A stretch of DNA of 64,000 bases from Candidatus Doudnabacteria bacterium (lineage in GTDB: Bacteria > Patescibacteriota > JAQUNI01), in contig JBAZQX010000002.1 of assembly GCA_041644975.1 (NCBI GenBank), positions 84,603-148,602 on the forward strand. Reading direction: 5' to 3'. The first letter of the stretch is position 1, and every line of letters begins with the position of its first letter. The notes beneath the pieces are model-generated. The model saw only the letters and a list, made by a program, of their open reading frames with translations, searched no databases and had not been told where the DNA came from. Made by a program: the position numbers and the translations under genes. Shown here one piece after another: positions 1,994-50,515 of the stretch.

Positions 1994-4900
1994 ATGAAAA
2001 AATATACATCGTTTGTGTTAGTCGTTTTTTCTGTGGTATTTGTCTCTATGTTTGCAAGGGGGGCCTCTGCTTTTACCGGAGGCGACGGTTCTTCTGGAAA
2101 CCCTTATCAAATAACTAATTGCGTTCAGTTGCAAGAGATGAACAATAACTTGACTGCAAATTATGTTTTAATAAATGATATTGATTGTTCTGATACTGTT
2201 AACTGGAATTCTGGAGCCGGACTTGCGCCTATCGGAACACCGGCCTCCCCATTTACAGGAACTTTTGATGGACAAGAGCATAAAATAACTGGCTTGTTCA
2301 TAAACAGGCCTTCTACTAATTATGTTGGTTTGTTTGGCAAGAATTCTGGTACAATACAAAATGTTGGTTTAGTAGATGTTGACATAACTGGTAATGATTA
2401 TGTGGGAGGACTAAGGGGTTATAATGAAGGAGCCATAACAAACTCCTATGCAACTGGAAGAGTAAGTGGCAGATATTATGTAGGAGGATTAGTTGGTGTA
2501 AATGTGGGAGCTATAACAAACTCCTATGCAACTGGAAGAGTAAGTGGTGGTGCTTATTTAGGAGGATTAGTTGGTTGGAGTAATGTAGCTATAACAAACT
2601 CCTATGCAACTGGAAATGTAACTGGTGGTGATTATTTAGGAGGATTAGTTGGTTTTAATGGGGGAGTAGGAGCCATAACAAACTCCTATGCAATTGGAAA
2701 TGTAAGTGGTACTAATGGTAATGTAGGAGGATTAGTTGGTTTTAATTATGCAGGAGCCATAACAAACTCCTATGCAACTGGAAGAGTAAGTGGTGGTGCT
2801 TATGTGGGAGGGTTAGTTGGTTGGAGTTATTATTATAGAGGAACCATAACAAATTCTTATTGGGATACAGAAACATCTGGTCAGCCTACGAGTGCGGGTG
2901 GAACAGGAAAAACAACAGCAGGAATGAAACAACAATCCACTTTTGTGGGTTGGGATTTTGCTACTATATGGGCGATTAAGGAAGGAGTTAGTTATCCTTA
3001 TTTCTCATGGCAAATTCCTCCTGTCGTAGATTCAGACGGCGATGGTTATTCTTCAGCCGTGGATTGTAATGACAACAATCCCAATATTCATCCGGGTGCA
3101 ACAGAGGTCTGTGATGGTGTGGATAATGATTGTGATGGTGCGATTGATGAGGGTTTAGTAGGACCTTATACTCCTAATCAGATGGGTGTTTGTGCAGGTT
3201 CGAATATGAGTTGTGCAGGTGTAAATGGTTGGGTTGTAACATATCCTTCAAATTATGAGCCTACAGAAGTATCATGTGATGGTAAGGATAATGATTGTGA
3301 TGGAACAATTGACGAATTTTGTGATACAACGCCACCTGTCGCCCCCGATGCTCCGGACCTGCAAGCAGCCAGCGATACGGGCTCTTCCGATACCGATAAC
3401 ATTACCAACGACAATACTCCCTCCTTTGACATCACCGGACTTGAATCCAACAGCACGGTGACTGTTTACGATGGCAGTAATATCTTGGGAACAATGGTTA
3501 TCCCGGGCGGCTACACTTTTGGAACCTTTACACCCGCAAGCCCGATGAATGAAGGTATATACGTCATTACGGCTACCCAGACAGATGCGGCTGGCAATGT
3601 CGGCCCGATATCACCGGCAATGGTGCCCAATTTGCTTATTGATACAACCCCGCCTGTAATTGCTGCCCACGCTGACGTTACCGTTGAAGCCACTTCTCCA
3701 GCCGGTGCAGTTGTTACTTATGAATTGCCAACCGCTACTGACAACTATGATACTAACGTGGTAGTGACATGTACTCCAGTTTCTGGTTCAACATTCCCAC
3801 TAGGCGATACCACCGTGACCTGTACCGCAACAGATTTGGCAGGCAATAATACTATCCTGGCCACCAGGACTGTACATGTTAATGTTACCGTTGAGGCCGC
3901 TTGTTCGGCCGGAGCAGTTGTTACTTATGAATTGCCAACCGCAACCGATAATAATGGTGCAAGTGTTATTATGACCTGCACTTTTCCTCCAGGTTCAACA
4001 TTCCCACTAGGCGATACCACCGTGACCTGTACCGCAACAGATTCATCAGGCATCGTAATTTCAACCACATTTGTTGTTCATGTTGTAGATTCTACTCCGC
4101 CAGTAATTACTGCTCATGCTGACGTTACCGTTGAGGCCATCTCTGCGGCCGGAGCAGTTGTTACTTATGAATTGCCAACCGCAACCGACAACTATGATGC
4201 TAACGTGGCAGTGACATGCACTCCAGTTTCTGGTTCAATTTTTCCTCTCGGTGATACGACCGTAACCTGCAACGCTCATGATAACGCCGGCAACGTTGCA
4301 ATCCCGACAACGTTCAAGGTTTCAGTACAGGATAAAACCGCGCCGACAATTACAATAATTACACCTGTGTCATATGGACTTTATACAGTTGGAACAGCTC
4401 TTGATTTTTCTGCCACCGATGACCAGAGTGGCATTGCGAGTGTTGTAGGAAATCTGAAAAATACGCTTGACGTATCAAAACAGGTCGCAAGCGGCGATGT
4501 GCCTGAACCGGGTGTTTATACGCTAGTAGTAACTGCCACGGACAATGCCGGCAACATCAAGGTAAGCGATACCGTGAACTTCGTTGTCTATGATCCAAGT
4601 GGTGGGTTTGCCATCGGTGGAGGATGGTTCTATCCGGATGATTCGGAAGGCAGTTTATCTTCTGCGGGCAAGGCCAATTTCGGCTTCAATGCAAAATATA
4701 AAGACTCCAGTTCCACTGGCAACCTTGAATTCCAGTACAAGAGTGGTCCTGACATCAATTTAAAAAGCACCACGATTGACTGGCTGGTCATCAGCGAAAC
4801 AAGCGCTCAATTTCAGGGTACGGGCACCATTAACGGCACCGGACTCTATACTTTCCGAGTAATGGCAAAAGACAATGCTGAACCGGGAATAGGAGCCGAC

Positions 4901-5005
4901 CATTTTGATATAAGAATCTGGGGCGGTACCGATACCAGCGCGGGAATTGTCTACAAAGCAAAGAATACCCTTTCCGGCGGTAATATTGTGGTTCACAAGA
5001 AATAA
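1994..5005 (+). CDS. large secreted surface/adhesin-like protein with GLUG-type Gly-rich repeats, MopE-like Cys/Asp metal-binding motifs and HYR-like Ig-fold repeats
   Basis: 1003-aa ORF with an N-terminal signal peptide. About 8 tandem repeats of ITNSYATG(R/N)VSGG.Y(L/V)GGLVG (GLUG-like). Two CDGxDNDCDG(A/T)IDE motifs. Three repeats of ~100 aa of type PPVI(A/T)AHADVTVEA..AGAVVTYELPTATDN..TFPLGDTTVTCTATD (HYR-like). Confidence 0.85.
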   Translation: MKKYTSFVLVVFSVVFVSMFARGASAFTGGDGSSGNPYQITNCVQLQEMNNNLTANYVLINDIDCSDTVNWNSGAGLAPIGTPASPFTGTFDGQEHKITGLFINRPSTNYVGLFGKNSGTIQNVGLVDVDITGNDYVGGLRGYNEGAITNSYATGRVSGRYYVGGLVGVNVGAITNSYATGRVSGGAYLGGLVGWSNVAITNSYATGNVTGGDYLGGLVGFNGGVGAITNSYAIGNVSGTNGNVGGLVGFNYAGAITNSYATGRVSGGAYVGGLVGWSYYYRGTITNSYWDTETSGQPTSAGGTGKTTAGMKQQSTFVGWDFATIWAIKEGVSYPYFSWQIPPVVDSDGDGYSSAVDCNDNNPNIHPGATEVCDGVDNDCDGAIDEGLVGPYTPNQMGVCAGSNMSCAGVNGWVVTYPSNYEPTEVSCDGKDNDCDGTIDEFCDTTPPVAPDAPDLQAASDTGSSDTDNITNDNTPSFDITGLESNSTVTVYDGSNILGTMVIPGGYTFGTFTPASPMNEGIYVITATQTDAAGNVGPISPAMVPNLLIDTTPPVIAAHADVTVEATSPAGAVVTYELPTATDNYDTNVVVTCTPVSGSTFPLGDTTVTCTATDLAGNNTILATRTVHVNVTVEAACSAGAVVTYELPTATDNNGASVIMTCTFPPGSTFPLGDTTVTCTATDSSGIVISTTFVVHVVDSTPPVITAHADVTVEAISAAGAVVTYELPTATDNYDANVAVTCTPVSGSIFPLGDTTVTCNAHDNAGNVAIPTTFKVSVQDKTAPTITIITPVSYGLYTVGTALDFSATDDQSGIASVVGNLKNTLDVSKQVASGDVPEPGVYTLVVTATDNAGNIKVSDTVNFVVYDPSGGFAIGGGWFYPDDSEGSLSSAGKANFGFNAKYKDSSSTGNLEFQYKSGPDINLKSTTIDWLVISETSAQFQGTGTINGTGLYTFRVMAKDNAEPGIGADHFDIRIWGGTDTSAGIVYKAKNTLSGGNIVVHKK
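2441..2830 (+). repeat. intragenic near-identical DNA tandem repeats (GLUG-like unit, ~70 bp x ~6) within the 1994 gene
   Basis: aacaaactcctatgcaactggaagagtaagtggtgg...ggaggattagttgg recurs at about 2448, 2518, 2588, 2680, 2758. Confidence 0.8.
3640..4290 (+). repeat. intragenic ~240-bp HYR-like repeats (3 copies) with conserved DNA blocks
   Basis: gacgttaccgttgaggcc...gccggagcagttgttacttatgaattgccaaccgc...ccactaggcgataccaccgtgacctgtaccgcaacagat recurs at about 3675, 3885, 4125. Confidence 0.8.
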
Positions 5006-13310: not shown

Positions 13311-14279
13311 ATGAAAAAGATTTCAATAATTGGATTGATTGCAGGTATTTTAGTAATTGGAGCTATTGCTTTTTTCTTGTTAAATTCTTCTTCAGAAGAG
13401 GAGAATAATGTGGGCCAAGAATCAGAAATTTTTTGCGCAGATTACGATGGAAATCAGCAAGAATGTTTATCCCATTCAGAATGTAAGTGGAGTTCAGATA
13501 TGAATGAATGTGATTCAACAGATATGGTTGAGGAAGAAGATGGTGGAGGATTTAAACAAGAATTAGAAAATATTGCTGTTCCAAATAATCCCTCAAATAC
13601 TCTTTGTAAAAAAATACCTTTGTCAGGTAAACCTCCTTATAGCGAAAGATATTACTGTTTAGCGGTTGTAAATCATGATGAAAGATTTTGTGAAGGGATT
13701 GATGAAGAAAAGGGGAAAAATATTTGCTTAGCCCATGCGAAAGCAGACCCCTCTTATTGTAAAAAAATCCAAGAAGATTCAGCTAAACATGTTTGTTATT
13801 ATATGCTTGCAGTATCAAGCAAAAATGCTGATTTTTGTAGTGATATTAGTTATAGTCAACATGAAAAAGAACAATGCTATTTTAATTTTATGAGTAATTT
13901 ATATCAGTGGGATAAATCTGATGAGATAAAAACAGAATACTGTAATCAACTTGATACTCCAGATAAAAATACTTGTCTTGCATTAAAGGCGAGAGATATT
14001 TCTCTTTGCGGAGATAATCCTCATTGTTTGACTTTTTTTGAGCAAGATTTGTCTTTTTGTGATGAACATCCTGAAATAGATGGTTGCATAAAAGATAGGG
14101 CAAAGACAAGTAAAAATGTGTCAATTTGTGAATTACTTCCCCAGCCAGATAGAGATAGCTGTGTTGGGGTTTATTGCACCCACACAGAGCTTGATGTTAA
14201 TATTTGTGATACAATTGAGGGCATTAAAGAAAGACAAGACAGGTATATAGAACTTGCAATGAATTTAGGTAATTGGTAA
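13311..14279 (+). CDS. secreted cysteine-repeat protein (paralog A)
   Basis: 322 aa with a signal peptide. About 24 Cys in a periodic C-x10/11-C pattern (YYCLAVVNHDERFC, NICLAHAKADPSYC, HVCYYMLAVSSKNADFC ...). Paralogous to the 15502..16311 protein. Confidence 0.7.
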   Translation: MKKISIIGLIAGILVIGAIAFFLLNSSSEEENNVGQESEIFCADYDGNQQECLSHSECKWSSDMNECDSTDMVEEEDGGGFKQELENIAVPNNPSNTLCKKIPLSGKPPYSERYYCLAVVNHDERFCEGIDEEKGKNICLAHAKADPSYCKKIQEDSAKHVCYYMLAVSSKNADFCSDISYSQHEKEQCYFNFMSNLYQWDKSDEIKTEYCNQLDTPDKNTCLALKARDISLCGDNPHCLTFFEQDLSFCDEHPEIDGCIKDRAKTSKNVSICELLPQPDRDSCVGVYCTHTELDVNICDTIEGIKERQDRYIELAMNLGNW

Positions 14280-14374
14280 AAATTTAATGCTGCAGAATCC
14301 TAAAAATTTGTTTTGCTTTTTTATTAATTCTGATTCAAAATTCAAATACAGTAATTTTTTGATAGAATAAGATC

Positions 14375-15112
14375 ATGAAAAATCCAGAAGAAATAAAAAA
14401 AATTGTTAAAAATAAGTATAAAGAAATAGCCGTCAGTGATTCCGGTTGCGGCTGTGGTTGCGGAGGCGCGCAGGATATTGCTAAAAGCATAGGTTATTCT
14501 GAAGAAGATTTAAAAACGGCAGGAGCAGCGAATCTTGGTCTTGGTTGCGGCAATCCTGTAGCCTTTGGTAAAATAAAAGCGGGGGATATTGTTTTGGATT
14601 TGGGGTCCGGCGCCGGTATAGATTGTTTTTTGGCTGCGAAGAAAGTAGGCAGCACAGGTAAAGTGATCGGTATTGATATGACAAGAGAAATGGTTGAAAA
14701 AGCAAAGGATAATGCCGAGAAACAAGGGATTAAGAATGTAAAATTTATTTTAGGAGAAATAGAGGATTTGCCCCTTAAAGATAATTTGGTAGATATTATC
14801 ATTACCAATTGCGTTGTTAACCTTACTCCCAATAAGACCAAAGCTTTTCAAGAAGCATACAGAGTTTTAAAGCCAGGAGGAAAAATTTATCTTTCAGACA
14901 TTGTTTTATTAAAAGAGCTTTCAGAGGAACAAAAAAACAACAAAGATTTATTATCCGGTTGTGTCGCGGGCGCTTTATTAAAAGAAGATTATCTAAATAA
15001 GATAAAGAATGCAGGATTTAAGGCACGGATTCTACATGAAAATAAAAAAATTGGTAAAGAACAATATCATGGGATCGCCCTTGAAAATTTAATGGTTGAA
15101 TTGGGAAAATAG
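14375..15112 (+). CDS. arsM: arsenite S-adenosylmethionine methyltransferase (ArsM)-like SAM-dependent methyltransferase
   Basis: 245 aa. N-terminal Cys cluster [22 protein letters not shown] motif [30 protein letters not shown] with the conserved Cys. Overall layout matches the ArsM/Cyt19 family. Confidence 0.75.
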
Positions 15113-15501
15113 ATATCTGCGTTTAAAGAATTAATTTCAGCAATGAATTTTTTCTAAACACCCATCAAACACGTTCTAAACCTTCGGCAAAGTTTACAGT
15201 GAGTTCATCGAACTGCTTGAGGGCAGGCTCGTCCCGAGGCCGTTCAGGCTCGAGGAGACTCAGCTCCTTCGACTGTGGGGTGAACAGCCCGAGGGGCTAT
15301 TGTTCACGATGCGGCGTAACATTAGATGGATTCAAATCTTTTTAGTAAAGGATGTCGTTCGCGAATGACATCCTAAAAGATAATTCACAATTTTTTGACC
15401 TGATCCCATTCTCTCTTTGTTTTTAGCCTTTCTTTCGTTGACTTGGTCTATATTGAATTTTGATTAAATAGTATTATTGATCATTTCATTAAGATAAAAT
15501 T

Positions 15502-16311
15502 ATGGGAAGAAAGTTTTTATTTTTTTGGTTTATTTTAATTGTAATAAGTATTATCGGTTTTTTATTTATTGTAAACAATAAGCCTTCAAATAATAAGCCT
15601 TCTTCTGAAGAAATAAAAATTCTCGATGACAAACCAAATTCGATTTGTCAAAAAATTACTTCGGCAGAGTCCAGATTTTTTTGTTTGGCTTTTGTGAATA
15701 AAGATGAAACTTTTTGCAATCGGATTGATGGTGACGGGAAAAATAGCTGTTTAGCCGCTGTGAAAAATGATTCTAAGTTTTGCCAGGAAATATCAAATAA
15801 AAACAAGCAATTTTGTTATCAAAATTTAGTTAGCGTGACCGGGAAAAGCGATTTTTGCAGTGAAATGACGGAAAAAAGAGACATCAGTTCCTGTTATGTC
15901 CATTTTGTAAGCACTAATTTTCTTGCTTCTAATTTTGACCTTCTAAACCAAAAATTGTGCGAGCAGATTATTGATAACTCACCGGAGAAAACCTTATGTC
16001 TTGCCATGGTAAATCAAAATCCTGATGTTTGCGGTCCGGAGAGAAATGACTGCGCGGCATTTTTTAGTAAAGACGAGTCTACCTGCATAAAATCTGCCTC
16101 GGAGATAGATAAGGCAGAATGTTATCATGCTTTGGCGATGTTAACTAATAATAGTTCTATTTGTGAAAAAATTAGCGATTCCAATCAAAAAGACGATTGT
16201 TATAGGGATTATGGCAGAATCAGTGAAGATACTATAATATGCGATAGGATATCCAATGTTATGTTAAAGGGAGAATGTTATAAGAATGTTGCGATTCATC
16301 TTGTAAATTAA
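15502..16311 (+). CDS. secreted cysteine-repeat protein (paralog B)
   Basis: 269 aa. Signal peptide. Same periodic Cys repeat (RFFCLAFVNKDETFC, NSCLAAVKNDSKFC, QFCYQNLVSVTGKSDFC ...). Confidence 0.7.
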   Translation: MGRKFLFFWFILIVISIIGFLFIVNNKPSNNKPSSEEIKILDDKPNSICQKITSAESRFFCLAFVNKDETFCNRIDGDGKNSCLAAVKNDSKFCQEISNKNKQFCYQNLVSVTGKSDFCSEMTEKRDISSCYVHFVSTNFLASNFDLLNQKLCEQIIDNSPEKTLCLAMVNQNPDVCGPERNDCAAFFSKDESTCIKSASEIDKAECYHALAMLTNNSSICEKISDSNQKDDCYRDYGRISEDTIICDRISNVMLKGECYKNVAIHLVN

Positions 16312-16367
16312 AACTTGACCTTTTTTATTTCTATGCACTTTGCAGACAGATTCCACCAAAGGGAGCT

Positions 16368-16410
16368 AAAAAAATCGCCAAAAGGGCGATTTTTTGGTAA
16401 AATAAAAAAG
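16368..16410 (+). promoter_or_regulatory. family-C module: atcgcc-aaaa-gggcgat hairpin + T6 + extended -10-like TGgTAAAAT, about 30 nt upstream of the ATG
   Basis: aaaaaaatcgccaaaagggcgattttttggtaaaataaaaaag. Near-identical 80-bp block, including the first codons ATGCATTTRAAAAAT, at 21470-21555. Confidence 0.5.
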
Positions 16411-16435
16411 AGTTCATTAAAATAAAAACAAATCT

Positions 16436-16918
16436 ATGCATTTAAAAATAAGATACATTTTTATCCCTTTTCTGGTGATTATTATTGTAGGAATTGGCGT
16501 ATATATTTTGCTTTCAAAGACAAAAAAGGAGTCCTCTAAAACCCTAGAGATAACTAAAATTACTTGGGTATTGGAAAAAGCGGGCGAAGATAGCGAGACG
16601 GGAGCGCCGCTTACAAAAGTAAAAGCAGATTTCAAAGGCGGAATCAATAAAGGATATGACGCGGGGGTTTACGCTGGAAACTGTTTTGAGATTGCCAAAT
16701 CCGAATGGGAACTTTTAGAAAATGAAATTTCGGGAGTGATTTGCTGGTGGGCAGGCGGGGGAGATGAGATTGGCATTTTTAAGGAAGATGATAAACTGGT
16801 TATCGAACACGGGACGCTTAGCGCGGGTGGTCCTGCTACAGAAGATGAGCCGGCCATACCGAATTTCAGAGGCGACTTTGAAAAGCTTTTTGAAATGAAA
16901 GGAAGACCTGTTTTTTAA
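16436..16918 (+). CDS. hypothetical secreted/membrane-anchored protein
   Basis: 160 aa, starting MHLK. Its 5' region and first codons are shared with the gene at 21541 (repeat family C). N-terminal TM. Confidence 0.5.
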   Translation: MHLKIRYIFIPFLVIIIVGIGVYILLSKTKKESSKTLEITKITWVLEKAGEDSETGAPLTKVKADFKGGINKGYDAGVYAGNCFEIAKSEWELLENEISGVICWWAGGGDEIGIFKEDDKLVIEHGTLSAGGPATEDEPAIPNFRGDFEKLFEMKGRPVF

Positions 16919-16943
16919 CCCCAATAAAAAGAAGTATTATTTT

Positions 16944-17687
16944 ATGAAGAGAATCCATCTTTTATTTTTTTTATTTATTGTAATTGCCGTAATTATTTTA
17001 CTGATTTATATTTTTTCTGAAAAACCAAAATCATCCTTGCCCCAAAACAATCTCCCCACGGCTCCAACCAGCGAGCCAGGGCAGAAAAGTAATTCGCCAT
17101 CGGTTTCGGGTACAGAGCCAGGGTTGCAGCAAACTCAACCCAACAATGCAAATGTCGGAGATACTGACAAAGGAAGTGCAGGTATTTTTCAACCTCCTTT
17201 AGAGAGAGCGATGGAAAGGGTACTTAAGAAAAAATTTGGTATGTATATTACCCCTCAAAATTCGCCAGTGCAGCCAGAAAGATTTCAAGGATATCACACG
17301 GGAGTTGACTTTGAAATTTTCCCCGAGGAGTTAAACGCGGAGGTCCAAGTCCATGCGGTTTGTTCGGGAGAACTAAAATTAAAAAAACACGCGTCTGGTT
17401 ATGGAGGAGTCGCGGTTCAGGCTTGCGAATTAAATAAAGACCCGATAACTGTGATCTACGGACACTTGAAATTGTCTAATATCACTGCTGATGTTGGAAC
17501 AAATATCAATGTTGGCGAAGTAATTGGGATTCTAGGAGCCGATAAAAGCGTGGAGACAGACGGTGAACGCAAGCATTTACATTTAGGTTTTCATAAAGGA
17601 ACAGCGATAGATATTCGAGGTTATGTGAGTTCAGAAGCAGAACTCGCTAACTGGATTGATCCTTGTCTTTATGCTTGTCATGATTAG
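16944..17687 (+). CDS. M23 family metallopeptidase (LytM-like)
   Basis: 247 aa. N-terminal anchor. HTGVDF (HxxxD) and HLHLGFH (HxH) M23 active-site motifs. Gly-rich beta region. Confidence 0.75.
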   Translation: MKRIHLLFFLFIVIAVIILLIYIFSEKPKSSLPQNNLPTAPTSEPGQKSNSPSVSGTEPGLQQTQPNNANVGDTDKGSAGIFQPPLERAMERVLKKKFGMYITPQNSPVQPERFQGYHTGVDFEIFPEELNAEVQVHAVCSGELKLKKHASGYGGVAVQACELNKDPITVIYGHLKLSNITADVGTNINVGEVIGILGADKSVETDGERKHLHLGFHKGTAIDIRGYVSSEAELANWIDPCLYACHD

Positions 17688-17739
17688 AGTAATAAATTTT
17701 GAAAAATGCTCGCGGTTATAATATAAAAAAGAGAAATTT

Positions 17740-17772
17740 GGGGTCAGGTCTTGAAATTTGCCCCTTTTTAAT
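17740..17772 (+). terminator. conserved terminator hairpin (ggggtca..tgacccc type) preceding family B
   Basis: ggggtcaggtcttgaaatttgcccc + T5. Same sequence at 18688 and 21427 and similar at 7889 and 10011, so the terminator itself is a repeated module. Confidence 0.65.
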
Positions 17773-17774
17773 TT

Positions 17775-17900
17775 CTACAATATATAGCGCGAGTAGCGGG
17801 CCACGTCGCTCGCGAGCCCCGTCGCTCTTGAGCGACAGGGCGAGCGACGTGGCAGGATGGGGTAAAATCTGATAAACTAAGATTGCGGACTTAAATTTAG
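17775..17900 (+). repeat. repeat family B, long form
   Basis: atatatagcgcgagtagcgggccacgtcgctcgcgag-ccccgtcgctcttgagcgacagggcgag-cgacgtggcaggatggggtaaaatctgataaactaagattgcggacttaaatttagg. Preceded by the ggggtcaggtcttgaaatttgcccc T5 hairpin. Confidence 0.85.
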
Positions 17901-17959
17901 GATGTAAACATATTCATTAAACAGGGCATCCCTCTTTTTACAAGAAAACCCAAAAATTT

Positions 17960-18625
17960 ATGATTTTTTTAATTGTCGGACTTTTAGCTTATCTTATTTT
18001 TCTTCCGCTTTGCTTTGCTATTTTATTTTTGGTTGCTAGAAAACAATATAAAAATTATTCGGTTTTCACTTTTTGGCTAAGCAATCTTGGCGCGAAAAAA
18101 TCGCGCAGCCGCCTTATCTTCAATGTTTGTTCCTTTGTTTCTGGTTTATTGAATTTATTGTTTAGCTGGATATTATTTAAAATTTTGCCCCAAACATTAT
18201 TGACTCTGGCAATGTTAATATTTTTTTCGCTGTCCGCCCTGCTTACTGTTCTTATTCCTTTTTTCCCGATGGACAAGAAAAGAAAAGCCCACGAAATAAT
18301 CGCTAACATTTTATTTTTTTGTATTTTAGCAGCTTGTTTGTTATTTACTTATTTTAATTTGATTTCACAAATGTTTCCCGCATTTTTAACTATTTTGAGT
18401 TTGGCTGCGGTTGTTTTTTCTCTTTTAGTAGTCTATTCTTACTTGAAATTAAAAGGAAAATATGGAGGCCGGGCAATGGGGGATTTGGTTTTTGAAAGGA
18501 AAAAAGAAAAGTCCTGTATTTTAAAGAATGCCACGCTATGGGAGTGGCTTGCCTTTTCTTCGGTGATTGTTTGGCTTTTTGCCTGGACCATTTGTCTTTT
18601 GAGCTTTTTGCTTCACGGACGTTAG
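17960..18625 (+). CDS. hypothetical polytopic membrane protein
   Basis: 221 aa with about 6 TM helices. No motif recognised. Confidence 0.5.
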   Translation: MIFLIVGLLAYLIFLPLCFAILFLVARKQYKNYSVFTFWLSNLGAKKSRSRLIFNVCSFVSGLLNLLFSWILFKILPQTLLTLAMLIFFSLSALLTVLIPFFPMDKKRKAHEIIANILFFCILAACLLFTYFNLISQMFPAFLTILSLAAVVFSLLVVYSYLKLKGKYGGRAMGDLVFERKKEKSCILKNATLWEWLAFSSVIVWLFAWTICLLSFLLHGR

Positions 18626-18687
18626 TCGGAGGATATTGACAAAAAAGGGCGAAAAAGGGAACGCATAAAATCAGCGCGAAGGGCATA

Positions 18688-18720
18688 GGGGTCAGGTCTT
18701 GAAATTTGACCTCTTTTTAT
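18688..18720 (+). terminator. conserved terminator hairpin after the 17960 gene
   Basis: ggggtcaggtcttgaaatttgacctc + T5. Confidence 0.65.
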
Positions 18721-18782
18721 TTCTACAATATATAGCGCGAGTAGCGGGCCACGTCGCTCGCGAGCGACGTGGCGGGGCAGGC
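18721..18782 (+). repeat. repeat family B, short form
   Basis: tacaatatatagcgcgagtagcgggccacgtcgctcgcgagcgacgtggcggggcagg. Perfect 13-bp-arm palindrome ccacgtcgctcgcgagcgacgtgg. Preceded by the same terminator hairpin as at 17740. Confidence 0.85.
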
Positions 18783-18852
18783 ATCATCTACACAAGCGAG
18801 CAAAAGTTTTTTATAAACCGAGCTATTTGCTTGGAAAGTCTTTTTATAAAGT

Positions 18853-18894
18853 GAATTGCCAAAAAGGCGAATTTTTTGTAAAATAAAATAAATA
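18853..18894 (+). promoter_or_regulatory. degenerate family-C module upstream of the P-type ATPase gene
   Basis: gaattgccaaaaaggcgaattttttgtaaaataaaataaatacttATG. Weaker stem but the same T-run plus gtaaaat box. Confidence 0.35.
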
Positions 18895-18897
18895 CTT

Positions 18898-21339
18898 ATG
18901 TTACCAAAAGGATTAAGTGAAAAACAAGTTCTAAGGCGCAGAGAGAAATTTGGCGAGAATTTGATTCTATCTAAAGAGAAAACCACTTGGTTTTCAATTT
19001 TATTGTCTCAACTTAAGAGCCCCTTAATTTATATTTTAATTGTTATCGGGTTTATTTCCCTATTTTTTCAAGAATACTTTGATCTGATTTTAATTTGGTC
19101 CGTGATCGTCCTTAATACCCTGATGGGTTTTTTCCAAGAATACCATGTTAAAAAAACCCTCGCTGCTCTTAGAAAACTTTTGAAGCCCAAAGCGCTAGTT
19201 GTTCGAGAAGGCAGAAGGAAGGAGATTGAAGCAAGAGAATTAGTGCCGGGCGATTTGGTTATTTTAAATTCTGGTGATAAAGTTCCGGCTGACGGAGAAA
19301 TAATTGAAGGAGTAAATTTGTTAATCAATGAAGCAATTTTAACCGGCGAAGAGGAGGCGGTGGCGAAAACAACAAAGGAAGAAAACAATTTTGTTTTTAT
19401 GGGCACGATGGCGATTTCCGGCAGGGGAATCATGAAGGTTTTAAACATCGGGAAAGAAACAGCAATTGGAAAGATTGAGCAAAAGTTAGCCGACATAAAA
19501 GAAAGGAAAACGCCGATTCAGTTAAAACTTGACGAATTTTCAAAAAGTTTAGGGAAGATTATTTTAATCGTTTGCGCAATTGTTTTTTTAGTAGGATTGT
19601 TCTACCGAGTAGATGCTTGGGAAATGTTTAAGTTCGCCGTTATTCTAGCGGTGGCGGCAATACCCGAGGGTTTGCCGATAGCGATAACCGTGATTTTAGC
19701 CCTCGGGGTGAGGAGAGTATTAAAAAGAAACGGGCTAGTTAAAAGGTTAATTTCAGTTGAGACCCTAGGTTCAACCTCGGTTATTTGCACCGATAAAACC
19801 GGAACCCTGACAGAAGGGAAAATGAAAGTCGTAAAAACAGATTTTTTAGATAAGGGAAAAACATTACTTGCTTTAACCTTGAATAATGAACAAAGGAGCG
19901 GTTTGGAGGCTGCCATTTGGGATTATATAAAAAAAGAAAAGAGATTTAACCCCCAAGATATTTTTGATAAAACGGAAAGGGTTTATGAGGAACCATTTGA
20001 TAGCGAAAAGAAATATTCGATGACTATAAATAAAGTTGAGAATAAGGAAATTGCCTTTTTGAAAGGGGCTCCAGAAGTTATTCTCTTATTCTGCCAGATT
20101 TTTGACGAAGAGAAAAATAAAATTTTGGGAGAAATTGAAAAATGGGCGGACGAGGGATTAAGAATCTTGGGGGTAGCTTTTAAAGAGAAAGGAAATTTAA
20201 AGGAGAAGAAAGAATTTTCTTGGCTTGGCTTAGTCGGTATTATTGATCCGATCAGAAAAGATGTGAAAGAGGCAATTTTGAGCGCTCAAAAAGCTGGGAT
20301 AGAAATTAAAATAGTGACCGGCGACTATCGCAAAACAGCCGAAAGGTTAGCAGCCAATCTCGGATTTAAACTCGCGCCAAAAAATATTTTAGAGGGTCAG
20401 ATGTTAGAAACTATTTCAGAGGAAGAACTCGAAAAGAAAATAGACGACATCGTTATATTCAGCAGGGTTGCCCCCCATCAAAAACAGAAAATAGTAAAAG
20501 TGCTTCAGGAAAAAGGAGAGATAGTGGCGATGACCGGAGATGGCGTAAATGATGTCCTTGCTTTAAAAAAAGCCGATATTGGCGTCGCGGTAGGGAGCGC
20601 TTCCGAGGTAGCCAAGGAAGCCGGAGATTTAATTTTACTGGACAATAATTTCAAGACAATTGTCGCGGCCGTGGAGGAAGGCAGATTAATTTTTTCAAAC
20701 ATTAAAAAAGTCGTGGGTTATGTTCTTTCTAATTCTTTTGTTGAGATTTTTTTGATTTTCGGATCCATAATTTTAAATTTACCCTATCCTATTACAATAG
20801 TTCAAATTTTGTGGCTGCACCTTGTTTGCGACGGACCACCTGATATTATATTGGGCTTTGAGCCTAAAGAAAAAGATCTTATGAAAGAAAGACCGGAAAA
20901 TCTTCGGAAAGAAAGCATTCTCTCTAACGCAATGAAATTTTTAATCTTCGGAATCAGTTTTATTATCGGACTCCTTTGTTTATTTCTCTTCTGGTATATT
21001 CTAAAAAAAACAGGGGATCTAATTTTTGCTCGCACCCTTATTTTTACAACAGTCGCCGTAGTTGATTTAATTTATATTTTCTCTTTTAAGAATTTGAAAA
21101 AACCTATCTTCAAAACTGAGAATTTTTTCAAAAATAAACTCCTATTTTTAGGTGTGCTTTATGGACTTTCGCTTACTTTCGCCGCCATTTATTTGCCTGT
21201 TTTGAACCGAATTTTAGGCACAGAGCCTCTTAAACCAGTTCACTGGTTATTAGTTTTAAGCGTTGCTTTAATTGCCACCCTTTGGGCTGAATTAGTTAAA
21301 ATTATATATAATCGAAAATACAGGCTTAATAATAATTAG
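18898..21339 (+). CDS. P-type cation-transporting ATPase (P2-type, Ca2+/Mg2+-like)
   Basis: 813 aa. Phosphorylation motif CTDKTGTLTEGKM. Hinge MTGDGVNDVLALKKADIGVAVG. TGE-like actuator region (LVPGDLVILNSGDKVPADG). About 10 TM segments. Confidence 0.9.
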   Translation: MLPKGLSEKQVLRRREKFGENLILSKEKTTWFSILLSQLKSPLIYILIVIGFISLFFQEYFDLILIWSVIVLNTLMGFFQEYHVKKTLAALRKLLKPKALVVREGRRKEIEARELVPGDLVILNSGDKVPADGEIIEGVNLLINEAILTGEEEAVAKTTKEENNFVFMGTMAISGRGIMKVLNIGKETAIGKIEQKLADIKERKTPIQLKLDEFSKSLGKIILIVCAIVFLVGLFYRVDAWEMFKFAVILAVAAIPEGLPIAITVILALGVRRVLKRNGLVKRLISVETLGSTSVICTDKTGTLTEGKMKVVKTDFLDKGKTLLALTLNNEQRSGLEAAIWDYIKKEKRFNPQDIFDKTERVYEEPFDSEKKYSMTINKVENKEIAFLKGAPEVILLFCQIFDEEKNKILGEIEKWADEGLRILGVAFKEKGNLKEKKEFSWLGLVGIIDPIRKDVKEAILSAQKAGIEIKIVTGDYRKTAERLAANLGFKLAPKNILEGQMLETISEEELEKKIDDIVIFSRVAPHQKQKIVKVLQEKGEIVAMTGDGVNDVLALKKADIGVAVGSASEVAKEAGDLILLDNNFKTIVAAVEEGRLIFSNIKKVVGYVLSNSFVEIFLIFGSIILNLPYPITIVQILWLHLVCDGPPDIILGFEPKEKDLMKERPENLRKESILSNAMKFLIFGISFIIGLLCLFLFWYILKKTGDLIFARTLIFTTVAVVDLIYIFSFKNLKKPIFKTENFFKNKLLFLGVLYGLSLTFAAIYLPVLNRILGTEPLKPVHWLLVLSVALIATLWAELVKIIYNRKYRLNNN

Positions 21340-27271: not shown

Positions 27272-30200
27272 ATGAAAAAAATAAAGGGATTGCCAATCTT
27301 TGCCCACGCACCAGCCCCACACCTTTTTAAAAGGTGGGGGACTGTATGGGGTTTCACATTTTTTTGTGCGGCACTGGTTTTATTTTTAGTGAAGATTCCT
27401 TCTGCCCTTGCTTATGGCTCTTATGCAGTGAGTTTTGGAAGTTACGCAGAAGGGATGCTTTCGGGGTTGGATCAAGAAACAATTGAATTTTACAGCGATA
27501 TTCCCGCAGGGGTAGATAAAGTAATTTTAAGCGCGGTGGGCAACGATTGCGTGCGGCGCAGTATTGATTTGTGCGGCGGGAGTCAAGAACGTTGCGAAGT
27601 AAGCGCGACTCCGGGTTCGCGAATCTATTTCAATGTGAGTTTTGATATTACGCCTTGCGGTTCCAGCCCTTCTTTTTGGTATCGGACTTATGTTTTGAAA
27701 TCGGAAGGGAGCGGCAGTGCCGACAGCGGTTTCTCCGCGAGAGCAAATGGGGAGCAGTGCAGCGCAAACAGCGAATGTCAGTCTGGATATTGCAACAATG
27801 GTTATTGTTGCACAGGGAATGTCTGTTGCGCGACTGACAGCGATTGTGCGAGCGATGCCTATTGCGGCTCTGATTATATTTGTTATTTTCAAGAAAATGA
27901 TGGTGCTTCCTGCAACCGTGCAAGGCAGTGCAAGGGCGGTTATTGTACAAATAACAAATGTAGTTCAAGTGCCTCTACTTGCGGCGATTATTATTGCGAT
28001 ACAGGAGAGACTTGCGCGAGTTGCCCGATGGATTGTGGAATCTGTAAAAAAGCGGATGGCGATTCTTGCGACTATGCTTCTCTATGCCAAGGTGGCTATT
28101 GTAATGGAGGGCGATGCGGTTCCAGCCCTTATTATTGCGGCAATGCTTATTGCGATGCGGGCGAAACCTGTGCTAATTGCGTTCGCGACTGCGGCGCTTG
28201 CCCGCGGCAAAATGGCGCCGTTTGCGATTACGATGATGATTGCGCAAGTAAACACTGCGTCCACGGCAAGTGTCGGGCAGGTGAGACTTATTGCGGGGAC
28301 AGCGAATGTGATGCGGCGGAAACCTGCGAGACTTGCGCTCGCGACTGCGGCGCCTGCGACAGTGCGGCTTGCACCAAAGATTCAGATTGTGCAGGCGGGC
28401 ATTGTGTGCACAAGAAGTGCCGTAATGAAACAACTTACTGCGGCGATGACGTTTGCGACTCGGGCGAGACTTGCGCAAAGTGCCAGCAGGATTGCTGCGG
28501 CTCGGATTTGCGTGTTTCTTTTTCTACGATGCGCTTGCAGTTGAAACCAGGGGACACGGGTAACTTAGAGATTAATTTTAGAAATGTAGCAAAATCTACT
28601 GCTGATAATGTTTATTGGAGCATCCTTGTGGATAAAGACGAATTGCTTGTTATTTCTCCTAAAGATAAAAATATTGGCACAGTGAAAGGCTCTAGTGAGT
28701 TATCCAAAGAAATAAAGATTACGGCGAAGTCTGCAGGCACGGCTTATTTGGCAATACATATTCGGGGCAATAATTTTGGCAGTATTCTGAAATTCGTCCA
28801 AGTGAATATTGAGGGAGGACTCGCGCTTGATGTGCCGGAGTCTATTTTTTTATTGCCTCAAGAAGAAAATGATTTCGGCGTTTTTGTGATTAACCAAGGC
28901 AATGAGTCAGCGCAAGTAAAGGGTTTAACCTTGGAGAGTCTGAATCCGAACGTTGTGGAGATTAAAGAGGGAGGAATAATGGAAGTGAGAGGACAGGGGC
29001 AGGGTATTAAACCAGACCAACTTTTTACTACCGAGAGTGAAGATATTTTGAAAATGATCTCCCCGCGACCGAAAATTCAGGGTCGGGACGCAGGGGAAAC
29101 TGAACTTGTTTTTAAACTTAAGTATTATCTTCCGGGGAGTAATCGCGAGGAAAGTCTAGAAAAGAGGACTAAGGTGAAAGTCGGCGCTACGCGTGGAGGC
29201 AAACAAAGTTTGCTTGATTTGCAAATCATTCCAGCCGGCATTGCTTTGGAAATAGGGGAGGCAAGAGAGTTAAAATTAGTTCTCAAAAACAAAGGCAGTG
29301 AAATCGTTAAGCAAGGTGTGATTAGAATCACTAAATCCAAGATTACCTATTTTGAATCCACCGCGGAGGTGCGCTTCGGTTTTATTGAGCCGGGGCAAGA
29401 AGCGACCGCGAAGATTGACCTTGTCGCCACAGATGAATTCCCGCCGCTTTTAAAGAAACTTGCCAAGGAGGGGGAATTAGCCATTACTGATCCTTTGTCT
29501 TTGGCAGTAGAGTATCAAACCGTGGACGGTCGCAAGTTTCAATTTCAGGACGAGATTAAAGTTTCGTTGGTGGAGAAGCGCGCCCAGTGCAAATCTAATG
29601 ACCCAGCGTGCGTTAGGGCTGTGAATTGTCTGGTAGAACTTTCCAATGCGATGAGCTGCACTCTAGAACTAGCGGATGTGATTCCATATTTAGACAAACC
29701 TGTGGCTGTGGTCCTTGCTACCGCTGATGTGTGTGAAATTGGGCAGAGGAGAGCAGGAGGTGATAGTATTGGTGCGGCGGTCTCGGCGCTTTTGATGGCG
29801 TCGGACGTAGCGGATAATGCCGCGGACGCAGTGCCGGGCGCGGGCAATTTGGCTTCCACTTTTGCGGATATCGTGGAGGGCGCAGCTGATTGCGCCGAAG
29901 GTTTTGTGCATAGCGGGGTGGATCAATATTGCGCCGGCGGCAGTGGCAAGGGTTATACCGGTTGTGCGGAAAATATTTTTAAGACCATTGCGGAGATTTC
30001 TGGTAAAGCGACAGAGCCAGCCGCCGTGCGGAAAATGGTGGTCGCTATGGTAGGCTCGCCCGTCGCCATCGCTGTCGTAGATAGTGAAGGCAAGGTTTTA
30101 ACTCCCCGGGACGGCGTTATTGTTTTACAGCAAGGGGATTTGAAACTCATTCTCATCAAAAATCCGCAGGATTTAATGGGAAGAAGCGTAAATTTTAAAA

Positions 30201-30529
30201 TTATGGGCGAGGATAATGGCAAATACAGTGTGCAGTTAGGTTTGATTGATAATGGTTCTTTAGTCAAAACGCGCGAATTAAAGGACAAAAAGATTAAACA
30301 AGATGAAGAGGTTTTAATTCCTTTGGGTGTCCGCAGTACTTCTAGCGCTCAATTGACCGATCTTTTACTGGGAAAAAGGGAGGTGGCGCGGCTGGGTCAT
30401 AAAGGATTTTTAGATACGATTTTAGACTCCCCGCGTCTATTCAAAAGCCTATTAGCTATTTTTGTTATTTTACTTGGTGGAGCAAGCGCTTTTTGGGTGT
30501 TGCGGAAGATTAAGCAGTCAAAAAGATAA
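27272..30529 (+). CDS. large cysteine-rich surface protein with 4 tandem ~46-aa Cys modules, Ig-like middle region and C-terminal TM anchor
   Basis: 1085 aa with a signal peptide. Four repeats of the form ...DGxSC.....C.GGYC....C......CG..YCD.GETC..C..DCG.C. C-terminal TM (LLAIFVILLGGASAFWVL) followed by RKIKQSKR. The GC-rich, repeat-rich DNA generates many spurious overlapping ORFs. Confidence 0.85.
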   Translation: MKKIKGLPIFAHAPAPHLFKRWGTVWGFTFFCAALVLFLVKIPSALAYGSYAVSFGSYAEGMLSGLDQETIEFYSDIPAGVDKVILSAVGNDCVRRSIDLCGGSQERCEVSATPGSRIYFNVSFDITPCGSSPSFWYRTYVLKSEGSGSADSGFSARANGEQCSANSECQSGYCNNGYCCTGNVCCATDSDCASDAYCGSDYICYFQENDGASCNRARQCKGGYCTNNKCSSSASTCGDYYCDTGETCASCPMDCGICKKADGDSCDYASLCQGGYCNGGRCGSSPYYCGNAYCDAGETCANCVRDCGACPRQNGAVCDYDDDCASKHCVHGKCRAGETYCGDSECDAAETCETCARDCGACDSAACTKDSDCAGGHCVHKKCRNETTYCGDDVCDSGETCAKCQQDCCGSDLRVSFSTMRLQLKPGDTGNLEINFRNVAKSTADNVYWSILVDKDELLVISPKDKNIGTVKGSSELSKEIKITAKSAGTAYLAIHIRGNNFGSILKFVQVNIEGGLALDVPESIFLLPQEENDFGVFVINQGNESAQVKGLTLESLNPNVVEIKEGGIMEVRGQGQGIKPDQLFTTESEDILKMISPRPKIQGRDAGETELVFKLKYYLPGSNREESLEKRTKVKVGATRGGKQSLLDLQIIPAGIALEIGEARELKLVLKNKGSEIVKQGVIRITKSKITYFESTAEVRFGFIEPGQEATAKIDLVATDEFPPLLKKLAKEGELAITDPLSLAVEYQTVDGRKFQFQDEIKVSLVEKRAQCKSNDPACVRAVNCLVELSNAMSCTLELADVIPYLDKPVAVVLATADVCEIGQRRAGGDSIGAAVSALLMASDVADNAADAVPGAGNLASTFADIVEGAADCAEGFVHSGVDQYCAGGSGKGYTGCAENIFKTIAEISGKATEPAAVRKMVVAMVGSPVAIAVVDSEGKVLTPRDGVIVLQQGDLKLILIKNPQDLMGRSVNFKIMGEDNGKYSVQLGLIDNGSLVKTRELKDKKIKQDEEVLIPLGVRSTSSAQLTDLLLGKREVARLGHKGFLDTILDSPRLFKSLLAIFVILLGGASAFWVLRKIKQSKR
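27880..28500 (+). repeat. intragenic tandem repeats (~140 bp x 4) encoding the Cys module in the 27272 gene
   Basis: tattgcgg..attattgcgat.c.gg.ga.acttgcgc.a.ttgc...gattg.gg..c.tg recurs at about 27975, 28130, 28290, 28440. Confidence 0.75.
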
Positions 30530-33694: not shown

Positions 33695-36067
33695 ATGCCT
33701 AAGAAAAAATTATTACTAGGGATTTTGATTCCAGTCGGCGTTTTGATTTTAATCGTTGTCGGCTTGTTGGTCTGGGGTTTTAGGGTACGTAAAAGCTTTT
33801 CCGCGAGGCAAAATATTACTGTTGATTTGCCGCAAGAAATGGATTACCAAAATTTAAATCCGAGCGACCAAAAGAAACTTTTACAGGATATTAAAAAGAG
33901 CCTTCCAAATAAGATTGTTCCGAATAGAGAAGGGCAGCCGGTGCGGATTGTTCAGGATGTGGTCTTGAGCCAAAATCAAAAAGCGTTGCCTGCGGGATTA
34001 AAACCGCTTAGCGGCGATAAACTTCTGGAGAGCACACCTGCTCAAACTCTTCCTCTTTCCAGCCAACCTCAAGCCGCGCCCGAGAAAACAGATGTTAAGG
34101 GAGCTTCTCGCGCGAAACAAGTTCAAGGGATGAAGATAGTTGCTAATCAGAGCGGCTCGGAACAGGAAGAAGAAATTAACTGGCCGGCGCTTGCCTATTC
34201 TTATAATGTGCCGCCGGGCGGTCAGGATAAGGGCGCGGAGTATAAGGAAATGGTGAAGATTATGGAGCTCACTAAAAAATATTATCCCACACTGGTCAAA
34301 TATTATGGCGAGCCTTTTAATGTTAAAAATCGGTTTTTGATGTTTGTTTATGACCCCGCGGCTGAATTTTCCGTCTTTCTTCCCCAATACGATACAATTA
34401 TCTTAGCAAGTTCCAGACCTTGGGAAGTGATTCCCGCTTTTGTCGCCGCGTTTCAAAGCAATTTTTACTCTGTGATTCCGGAAACTTGGAGAGACGGCAT
34501 GGTTTATGCCGTAGCGCAACTCGCGATTCGGCAATTTCCAGAGGATTGGCCTCGCGATCCGATGATGGATTTAATCGTTCAGGGTGTGGAAGGCAGTTAT
34601 GAAAAATATAATGTGGCGGCCTATCCCATCTGCGGCGCAAAGACCATTTATCTTAATGATTTCCCTGATTTTGCTTGGAAACGTCCTTTTTTAGCAGCCG
34701 CGGCGTGGCTTAAAATTTATCAATACGACCCAGAGTTTTTTCGCCGAATGAATATTGAGCTTTATGGCAATTCCCTGGATAGCGAAATCTGGCAGGATGA
34801 AATGAAGGTCTTTCTACGCACCAAGAATATTTTTTATCCCGAGATTGAAAAGTTTACACCGGACTCTTGGTATAATAATCAGCATGTTTTACATCAAACA
34901 CAAACCAATCCCATTGTTTTTTTAATGTGGGCGCTTTTTGGCAGCACCTTTGTGGCGGAGGATAATGGGATTCATCTGTATGAATTCAAATCCGTGAATG
35001 CCGGGCAAGGGACGCGTTTTGAACCCCGCCAGGATCGCTCGCATACGCTTCAAATTTACAATGACCGTGTTTTATTAAAAACTATTAGCCGCAATACGGA
35101 CGCGCGCGGTCAGATTGACATTCCTCTCGCGGAAGCAGGAACTTTAAGTAACGGTCGCTATGAAGTGAGATATAGTGAGGAAATCATCCCTATTAACTAT
35201 GCCTACTTTACGGAAAAACCGTATGCCTTATATGGAAGCGTGGATAACTTTGGGGAAGGGAAAATTTTAGCTTATGATCAGAACCAAAATCTGTTGGGAG
35301 AGGCGCAGATTTCCGCAGGCGCTTTTCGTTTTGAGAGACACTTTCAGGGCGTGATTAAATTAGATGTTCAAGATTATTTGGGTGATATTCCTTTACATAA
35401 GGAGCTTTCCAAACCCGAAGGTTCATATTATGTCGCCCTCGCTTCGCGCTCCTCCTCTTATGAGCCGGAGGAATCAGGCTCGCGTGGCGCTCCGCCGATT
35501 GGCGAAGGTGAGGCAACCGCGCCGAAGAGCGAGGATACTTCTCCCGCTCTTCGCAATGTAGTGCCTCCAGCGTCGCAGATAGAAGGACTACCGAATACTT
35601 TTATTTCCGACAAGTATAAATTTAAGATTAGTTATCCAGATGATTTTGACGCGACGGATACCACTAAATTACAGGGACCAAACCTGACTCCTGATATTCC
35701 TATCAAAAGCGAACAAGCGGCGCAGTTTATGGAAAAGAATAAGAAAATCGGCGCAAAAGAGGTGGGGATTATTTGGCATTCCAATCCGGATAAATCGTTG
35801 AAAAGTTTTGCTAAATATTATACGTCTATAACAGCAACAGAGGCGCAGTATGGCGCCCTGACCATTAACGGTCGGGAGGTAGTCACCGCGGAATATAAAG
35901 TGACGCCGGGGGTGCCAGGCAATCCAGCCGCGCGGCTCCCCGAGGTGGAAATGAAAAGTTATTTCATAAACCGGGGGACTGATGTTTTTATTTTTGGTTG
36001 CACTCTGGATAAAGAGAGCCAGGATCTGCTCAATAAAATGATTCAGACCTTTGATTTTGTGCAATAA
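33695..36067 (+). CDS. hypothetical large secreted/membrane-anchored protein
   Basis: 790 aa. N-terminal TM (LLLGILIPVGVLILIVVGLLVWGF). No recognisable catalytic motif. Confidence 0.7.
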   Translation: MPKKKLLLGILIPVGVLILIVVGLLVWGFRVRKSFSARQNITVDLPQEMDYQNLNPSDQKKLLQDIKKSLPNKIVPNREGQPVRIVQDVVLSQNQKALPAGLKPLSGDKLLESTPAQTLPLSSQPQAAPEKTDVKGASRAKQVQGMKIVANQSGSEQEEEINWPALAYSYNVPPGGQDKGAEYKEMVKIMELTKKYYPTLVKYYGEPFNVKNRFLMFVYDPAAEFSVFLPQYDTIILASSRPWEVIPAFVAAFQSNFYSVIPETWRDGMVYAVAQLAIRQFPEDWPRDPMMDLIVQGVEGSYEKYNVAAYPICGAKTIYLNDFPDFAWKRPFLAAAAWLKIYQYDPEFFRRMNIELYGNSLDSEIWQDEMKVFLRTKNIFYPEIEKFTPDSWYNNQHVLHQTQTNPIVFLMWALFGSTFVAEDNGIHLYEFKSVNAGQGTRFEPRQDRSHTLQIYNDRVLLKTISRNTDARGQIDIPLAEAGTLSNGRYEVRYSEEIIPINYAYFTEKPYALYGSVDNFGEGKILAYDQNQNLLGEAQISAGAFRFERHFQGVIKLDVQDYLGDIPLHKELSKPEGSYYVALASRSSSYEPEESGSRGAPPIGEGEATAPKSEDTSPALRNVVPPASQIEGLPNTFISDKYKFKISYPDDFDATDTTKLQGPNLTPDIPIKSEQAAQFMEKNKKIGAKEVGIIWHSNPDKSLKSFAKYYTSITATEAQYGALTINGREVVTAEYKVTPGVPGNPAARLPEVEMKSYFINRGTDVFIFGCTLDKESQDLLNKMIQTFDFVQ

Positions 36068-50452: not shown

Positions 50453-50496
50453 CCCCCACACCACGGATTTACATCCGTGGCATTCTGGTGTGGGGG
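50453..50496 (+). promoter_or_regulatory. strong 5'-leader stem-loop 20 nt upstream of the giant gene's start codon
   Basis: cccccacacc-a-cggat-ttac-atccg-tggcattct-ggtgtggggg. 10-bp outer stem plus 5-bp inner stem. Not followed by a T-run on the + strand. Confidence 0.5.
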
Positions 50497-50515
50497 TAAA
50501 TATAAAAATAAATGT

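Follow-up and report, generated by a model that had tools for sequence, protein, structure and literature searches.

The segment 13311-16311 of the 64,000-nucleotide stretch of Candidatus Doudnabacteria DNA analyzed here (hereinafter, the window) encodes an arsenite S-adenosylmethionine (SAM) methyltransferase, ArsM, flanked by two cysteine-rich exported proteins that are denoted A and B. An earlier note on this DNA, made from the sequence alone, interpreted the three genes, all of which lie on the + strand exactly at the positions given there (Table 1), as a thiol-based module for metal(loid) binding or sequestration. The comparative analysis described below points to a different picture, in which a standard ArsM is probably juxtaposed with functionally unrelated surface scaffolds, A and B, that are rigidified by disulfides and are encoded in a region prone to rearrangement. 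A and B are members of a large, unannotated Cys-repeat superfamily that, where the relatives are named, belongs to bacteria of the Candidate Phyla Radiation (CPR) and DPANN (Diapherotrites, Parvarchaeota, Aenigmarchaeota, Nanoarchaeota and Nanohaloarchaeota) archaea. The core function of these proteins appears to be independent of arsenic genes, and their conserved partner is a secreted beta-propeller protein.

The A-arsM-B sandwich is specific to the lineage of the window and is not conserved, as indicated by the breaks of synteny in relatives with 94-95% identical proteins. In the closest relative, with a 95% identical A on a 722 kb contig, the pair of genes preceding A and an initial 81 nucleotides past it are retained, but synteny ends where arsM starts, and a gene for a 1,210 aa protein is found instead. 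In the relative with a 94% identical B, this gene and the one downstream of it are retained, and the upstream genes encode MurJ and a C39-like peptidase. Four ArsM-centered CPR loci (76-84% identity to the window ArsM) show unrelated contexts, and none of the four contains Cys-repeat genes. A tblastn survey for ArsM covering 42 loci from genome and metagenome collections identifies a single case, locus L002, in which an ArsM gene adjoins a Cys-repeat gene. Altogether, ArsM is encoded within 4 kb in three of approximately 23 A-type lineages, and in none of the 22 B-type loci or any archaeal locus. The co-occurrence of the Cys repeat with arsM had been named beforehand as the test of the binding-module idea; given that the family is widespread in the absence of ars genes, the proposal is largely contradicted.

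The surroundings of A and B are a rearrangement hot spot. Gene order in the vicinity (13311-21339, compared with L043/L044 and L051) is scrambled among relatives that are 88-95% identical; for example, the DUF998 gene lies downstream of B in the window and upstream of it in L051, and in L043 the gene next after A is the one for the 1,210 aa protein. In the Paceibacterota locus L049 (7001-9231), ArsM is followed by genes for a 145 aa protein and an M23 peptidase, an order resembling the ArsM-(B)-160 aa-M23 arrangement in the window (14375-17687), but a tblastn comparison of the small and M23 proteins of the two loci reveals no sequence similarity. The A-type protein P0088 and the ArsM P0230 are each encoded on a 10,219 bp NCBI contig, probably the same one, although this is unverified.

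The middle gene product (METHYLTRANSFERASE) is, judging by its sequence, an ordinary canonical short-form ArsM that is predicted to methylate As(III). It scores 308.2 bits with the NCBIfam model NF008823, "arsenite methyltransferase" (cutoff 263), and matches Pfam Methyltransf_31 at 7.8e-41. The alternative assignment, a UbiE/COQ5-type enzyme devoid of the catalytic cysteines, is refuted by the presence of these residues and by the score of the best UbiE model, 65.8 bits with a cutoff of 216. The nearest solved structures, 5evj (E=6e-34) and 4fr0 (E=3e-29), are both ArsM. In the phmmer alignment to 4fr0 (CmArsM), C58, C146 and C196 correspond to the As(III) ligands Cys72, Cys174 and Cys224, respectively, and all three are invariant across 7 CPR ArsMs. 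In CmArsM, these residues have been assigned roles in arsenic binding and in the disulfide-cascade mechanism (PMC6138428). The counterpart of the C25/C27/C29 cluster (CGCGCG) in the alignment to 5evj is the N-terminal Cys region of that protein, and C25 and C27 are invariant in CPR ArsM homologs, with the one-to-one match to Cys44 of CmArsM being uncertain. All four motifs quoted in the earlier note as ArsM hallmarks are present (SGCGCGCGG at residues 23-31, LGLGCGNP at 54-61, one at 73-88 and ITNCVVNL at 143-150), and the ArsM-type assignment made there is supported. In the likely reaction, As(III) would be held on Cys146 and Cys196 (with Cys58) and methylated from SAM, and the N-terminal Cys cluster together with Cys58 would serve to reduce the pentavalent intermediate through a disulfide cascade.

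The window ArsM shares with CmArsM (4FR0) and CrArsM (5EVJ) the class I SAM-dependent methyltransferase core, the GCGNP, NCVxNL and GCxAGAL motifs, the three Cys at the As(III)-ligand positions, and a Cys near the N-terminus. Unlike the algal enzymes, it lacks the C-terminal domain of about 130 residues, carries the triple Cys cluster in place of a single N-terminal Cys, and is encoded by a stand-alone gene outside any ars operon. This 244-247 aa architecture is very common, with over 7,900 matching proteins at E≤1e-40; the closest of them, showing 73-86% identity, are Patescibacteria entries annotated as arsenite methyltransferase. Following up the suggestion to look for other ars genes, no ars-type Pfam family corresponding to arsR, acr3, arsB or arsC was detected among the approximately 50 window open reading frames (ORFs) of at least 110 aa, although shorter ORFs were not scanned and a small ArsR could escape such a search; the four other ArsM-centered CPR loci do not contain ars operon genes either. 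ArsM has no positively charged N-terminus followed by a hydrophobic helix of the kind found in A and B and is cytoplasmic.

A BLASTP comparison of A and B (32% identity over 247 aa, E=2e-31) bears out the proposed paralogy. Other features ascribed to the two proteins require revision. The count of about 22-24 Cys given for both is correct for A but not for B, and the "strict C-x10/11-C" periodicity is not observed: gaps of x10 or x11 account for 11 of the 17 in B and only 8 of the 21 in A. With the range extended to x10-x13, the fractions are 15/17 and 11/21, the outliers in A spanning x4 to x31. The regularity of Cys placement is nonetheless well above chance, being matched by none of 200,000 residue shuffles for B and by 5 of 200,000 for A. 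The actual repeat comprises two helices and about 24-26 residues with two Cys; its consensus (approximately 26 residues) is C-x2-I-x8-C-Y-x3-A-x4-D-x3. Each of the 18 Cys of B is conserved without exception in 23 homologs with 42-48% identity, the core Cys of A are invariant in 31 sequences, and 17 Cys are invariant across both subfamilies. Neither protein contains a CxxC, CxC or CC motif, the smallest Cys gap being x4, and the Cys content of the mature proteins is 7.7-7.9%.

The N-termini of A and B consist of a positively charged segment followed by a hydrophobic helix of about 22 residues with no obvious cleavage site, and in some homologs a lipobox is found instead. Thus, the extracytoplasmic location implied by the earlier assignment of signal peptides holds, but the N-terminal segment is more likely to be a signal anchor than a cleaved signal peptide. 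Searches of Pfam and NCBIfam with A and B yield nothing above noise, and two sub-threshold matches, one of the N-terminal 4-Cys module of A to the PSI domain (E=0.03) and one to YxzE, were rejected. The absence of a named domain for the Cys repeat, as previously noted, is therefore confirmed, with no relative in Pfam, NCBIfam or the PDB.

Confident structural models predict that A and B are all-alpha solenoids built of two-helix units of about 26 residues. The AlphaFold2 model of B has a mean predicted local distance difference test (pLDDT) score of 89.1 and a predicted template modeling score of 0.77; the model of A, also all-helical, has a pLDDT of 82.7 across the whole protein that rises above 90 for the core. 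In both models, short and long helices, each with one Cys, alternate after the transmembrane (TM) helix and the linker, and the 4-Cys module of A is modeled, with a pLDDT of about 70, as a helix and a beta-hairpin. A Foldseek search of the PDB started with these models finds nothing at E<0.001; the weak neighbors are solenoids of the tetratricopeptide repeat (TPR), LGN and HEAT types, with TM-scores of at most 0.3 and E of at least 0.1. A search of PDB sequences with the B-family profile gives no matches at E≤10. The best, non-significant structural matches (E≥0.1) are TPR proteins (the TPR domain of OGT, LGN and LbcA), which share with A and B the overall architecture of a right-handed stack of helical hairpins. 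The TPR repeat, however, consists of 34 residues and has no conserved Cys, whereas A and B alternate short and long helices with one Cys in each.

The closest functional parallel might be found in the Helicobacter proteins HcpB and HcpC and in COA7, which are Sel1-like-repeat (SLR) solenoids with Cys pairs that form intra-repeat disulfides (PMC8892353). A and B are likewise exported alpha/alpha solenoids with a conserved Cys pair in each repeat, and a binding-scaffold role is presumed for both groups. The two nevertheless differ in the length of the repeat (about 26 residues compared with about 36 in SLR) and in the CPR/DPANN range of the A/B family, and no Sel1 or TPR match is detected in A and B at E≤1 or in 100 superfamily members at E≤1e-3. 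The A/B family sits alongside the known disulfide-containing helical-repeat scaffolds and is not categorically new.

The cysteines of A and B most likely are structural, forming disulfides, as opposed to metal-binding thiols; the disulfide bonding and its connectivity are what we infer from the extracytoplasmic location, the lack of CxxC, CxC and CC motifs, and the behavior of Cys across homologs. Among 144 A/B homologs, 123 have an even number of Cys. The N-terminal module of the A type is an all-or-none feature in the same set, with four Cys in 80 homologs and none in 61. Furthermore, Cys is found at the column of A289 in 88 homologs and at the column of A311/B259 in 55, with no homolog having both and one having neither, as would be expected if either site can supply the partner of Cys299/Cys247. 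These events of Cys swapping and module gain or loss are phylogenetically few, so that any nominal P value is inflated. An enrichment of MdbA-like thiol-disulfide oxidoreductases and VKOR has been reported for CPR genomes (PMC6744442), which makes the presence of a disulfide-forming machinery plausible.

Comparison with metallothioneins and with ArsD and ArsR, arsenic metallochaperones or repressors that carry vicinal thiols, leads in the same direction. A and B are similarly Cys-rich, and binding of soft metals is chemically possible if their Cys are reduced, but they lack CxC, CxxC and CC clusters, contain about 8% Cys with one per helix, and are well-ordered, helical and extracytoplasmic. 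ArsD and ArsR are cytoplasmic proteins. Accordingly to the disulfide interpretation, A and B would be membrane-anchored, outward-facing alpha/alpha solenoids with two Cys in each helix-turn-helix unit of about 26 residues, in which disulfides staple neighboring helices to produce a rigid, protease-resistant surface binding scaffold, analogous in principle to the Helicobacter disulfide-containing SLR proteins.

The families to which A and B belong are large. There are 44 homologs of B, from Levy-, Davies- and other Patescibacteria where named. The 105 homologs of A belong to CPR bacteria and DPANN archaea, and no Pfam domain is detected. A search of 1.84 billion representative proteins with a combined profile retrieves, at the level of 50% identity, 4,983 protein clusters with E≤1e-3, of which 1,399 reach E≤1e-10. 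Many of these relatives are proteins of 400-970 aa with 5-13 matched stretches. In 100 superfamily members, no Pfam domain covers the repeat, and there are sporadic fusions to Peptidase_C39-like, TSP3 and DUF5667 domains. An additional N-terminal Cys module, DUF333 (PF03891), is located behind a lipobox in the A-type proteins P0111, P0116, P0119, P0126 and P0127, of which the named ones are archaeal. No description of the A/B repeat was found in the literature on Cys-rich surface families of CPR and DPANN, and a phage origin was rejected given the lack of relatives in viral contigs.

The A-type proteins show 55-71% identity between Patescibacteria and metagenome-assembled genomes of Nanoarchaeota, Woesearchaeota and Iainarchaeota, which suggests inter-domain transfer of a surface protein. 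Cross-domain homologs include P0065, P0093, P0100, P0104, P0113, P0119 and P0135, with the loci L004-L012, L052, L053 and L057; two of these loci, L052 and L053, lie on contigs that also encode the archaeal markers OapB/OapC and ZPR1.

A recurrent neighbor of the Cys-repeat genes encodes a signal-peptide-bearing WD40/PQQ-like beta-propeller protein of 570-740 aa. Of 40 loci, 17 have this gene no more than 300 bp from the Cys-repeat gene, frequently with an overlap, and 20 have it at a distance of up to 5 kb; the association is seen in both gene orders, with both subfamilies, and in bacteria as well as archaea. Examples of propeller genes are found in L024/L026/L027 (8150-9985), L010 (10908-12800), L018 (1472-5676) and L033 (4630-11775), the last with three propeller paralogs around a single Cys-repeat gene. 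Bacterial propeller partners possess a C-terminal 4-Cys tail, CGNxxCEPxLGETKExCxKDC (e.g., L027, 9900-9985), perhaps a surface or sorting module that is widely shared in CPR. The same 4-Cys motif begins the YhfC-like intramembrane metalloprotease of the window (VCGDKSCATFLGESAENCPQDC, 39651-39760), and a related motif is present at 28439-28495. The Cys-repeat and propeller genes look like a conserved two-gene surface module. Given this recurrent partner, A and B probably bind a protein or another ligand within a surface complex of episymbiotic organisms and are probably not involved in metalloid handling.

Several observations weigh against the interpretation of the locus as an ArsM next to unrelated, disulfide-stabilized scaffolds. 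The Cys covariation stems from few independent evolutionary events, and about 15% of the homologs have an odd number of Cys, partly because of a lipobox Cys and partly because of a CC doublet. The habitats are mostly anoxic, so that surface thiols might stay reduced. In the window itself, neither A nor B adjoins a propeller gene; the 666 aa protein encoded upstream, considered as a possible partner, turned out to be a CBM96/FN3 protein. Finally, divergent ArsMs with all catalytic Cys retained are encoded near A homologs in two bacterial lineages other than that of the window, 24 bp downstream in L002/L054/L055 and 3.4 kb upstream in L045, with the unverified P0088/P0230 pair as a possible third lineage. 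Overall, arsM is found near A-type genes in three or four of about nine bacterial A-type lineages, which is above naive chance. This recurrence, along with the adjacency of the three genes in the window and the high Cys content of the mature proteins, would favor a role of A and B, as thiol-rich proteins outside the cell, in binding or sequestering As(III), methylarsenite or other soft metals as a module with ArsM. The verified ArsMs encoded near A-type genes share only 51-62% identity, and the window ArsM is 76-83% identical to ArsMs from unrelated contexts, so that the adjacency is not one co-inherited unit, a fact that can be read in favor of repeated association. Yet ArsM is missing near A in about 20 other A-type lineages, including the 95% identical relative and all archaeal ones, as well as from all B-type loci, and the ArsM-centered loci have no Cys-repeat genes. 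In addition, other ars genes were not found among the scanned ORFs of the window, ArsM is located in the cytoplasm and A and B outside, and the Cys are distributed one per helix at a spacing of 10-13 residues, without vicinal motifs and with paired behavior. The arsenic-binding proposal is therefore unlikely, and the likeliest cause of the recurrence is that arsM and A-type genes, both being accessory, tend to gather in the same hypervariable parts of the genome.

Two further explanations retain the surface location of A and B but assign them other relationships. If arsM and the surface genes made up a co-regulated envelope-stress or accessory island, they would be kept together for the sake of expression, with no biochemical interaction between the products. 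The genes at ~10-38 kb are indeed all on the + strand and many have secreted or membrane products, the region is rearranged among close relatives, and arsM recurs near A-type genes in differing contexts. This scenario is nonetheless improbable because the structured 389 bp spacer between arsM and B speaks against tight co-transcription, promoter and terminator scans perform no better than on shuffled sequences, and no regulator was identified. A redox role, with A and B as substrates, buffers or relays of an extracytoplasmic MdbA/VKOR system, would fit the many conserved Cys in exported proteins, the enrichment of CPR genomes in MdbA and VKOR mentioned above, and the homolog fragment P0147, which is joined to a VKOR-like C-terminus. 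Also, the Cys-rich SLR proteins of Helicobacter pylori are described as requiring a Dsb system, the membrane partner of which contains a beta-propeller (PMC4597128). However, neither a CxxC nor a thioredoxin-like motif is found in A or B, P0147 is a lone 666 bp contig fragment that is possibly chimeric, the propeller partners show a signal peptide only and no DsbB-like domain, and there is no Dsb or VKOR gene among the window ORFs scanned, so that the probability of this role is low. The interpretation of A and B as disulfide-stabilized scaffolds that happen to be encoded next to a standard arsM is considered the most likely, with moderate confidence, and is the one adopted here.

Table 1. Features of the A-arsM-B locus (positions in the window)
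Feature	Positions	Strand	Length	Characteristics
Protein A gene	13311-14279	+	322 aa	22 Cys; A-type member of the unnamed Cys-repeat alpha-solenoid family; predicted TM anchor, residues 4-25; 4-Cys module, C42/C52/C58/C67; acidic linker; core solenoid, residues ~80-322
N-terminal 4-Cys module of A	13434-13514	+		C-x9-C-x5-C-x8-C; optional add-on, not in B
Methyltransferase gene arsM	14375-15112	+	245 aa	Short-form arsenite S-adenosylmethionine methyltransferase (predicted)
arsM-B spacer	15113-15501	+	389 bp	Unusually long; GC-rich segment and palindrome
Protein B gene	15502-16311	+	269 aa	18 Cys; B-type paralog; predicted TM anchor, residues 2-26; disordered linker, residues 27-40; nine two-helix Cys repeats

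The spacer between arsM and B is itself unusual. Its GC content reaches 0.65 in a segment at ~15190-15330, compared with about 0.35 around it, and a near-perfect palindrome at 15351-15376 closes the GC-rich element (15180-15385). The predicted fold of the + strand is more stable than expected (z=-2.56, with 1 of 200 shuffles equally stable). The spacer has no Rfam match at E≤1, shows no similarity to protein-coding sequences, and is not repeated elsewhere in the window or across 57 loci. The element could act as a terminator or in regulation, or could be a scar of rearrangement, and the length and structure of the spacer disfavor tight coupling and co-transcription of arsM and B. In a promoter and terminator scan of the 13.1-17.0 kb region, the counts are the same as in shuffled sequences, so that the scan is uninformative on operon structure; tRNA and Rfam scans of the window produce no matches. 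The GC content of the A, arsM and B genes is 0.33-0.36 compared with 0.41 for the window, but recent transfer was not accepted as the explanation because the neighboring DUF998 and ATPase genes have similar values (0.34 and 0.37, respectively).

Every gene in the surroundings (~10-38 kb) is on the + strand, and the numerous secreted and membrane products include CBM96/FN3, an M23 peptidase, DUF998 and a P-type ATPase. More broadly, almost all genes in the first 55 kb of the window have the same orientation, and the GC skew there is consistently positive. A 1,003 aa surface protein (1994-5005) combines HYR, GLUG and Big_13 domains with a putative MopE-type copper-binding motif, and four very large ORFs of 752-1,613 aa (27272-30529, 33695-36067, 40829-43087 and 50477-55318) have no Pfam match at E≤1e-4. 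Three NUDIX hydrolase genes are located inside 7 kb (37495-37896, 38083-38520 and 44001-44561), and in L045, L047 and L048 NUDIX genes are again found close to homologs of ArsM or A.

The short stand-alone ArsMs, confirmed here to be common in Patescibacteria, bear on the methylation of arsenic in paddy soils and anoxic aquifers, and the mostly lineage-specific adjacency of arsM to Cys-repeat genes cautions against over-reading gene order in highly rearranged small genomes. The A/B family is confidently foldable and includes thousands of members in organisms in which the surface biology of host attachment is poorly known. As a tentative possibility, the superfamily and the adjoining propeller could represent a two-component cell-surface module exchanged between domains, a candidate apparatus by which episymbiotic ultra-small cells attach to or sense their hosts and that was perhaps recruited beside arsM in a bacterial subclade. 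Naming this family would annotate a sizeable block of the "hypothetical" surface proteins of CPR bacteria and DPANN archaea.

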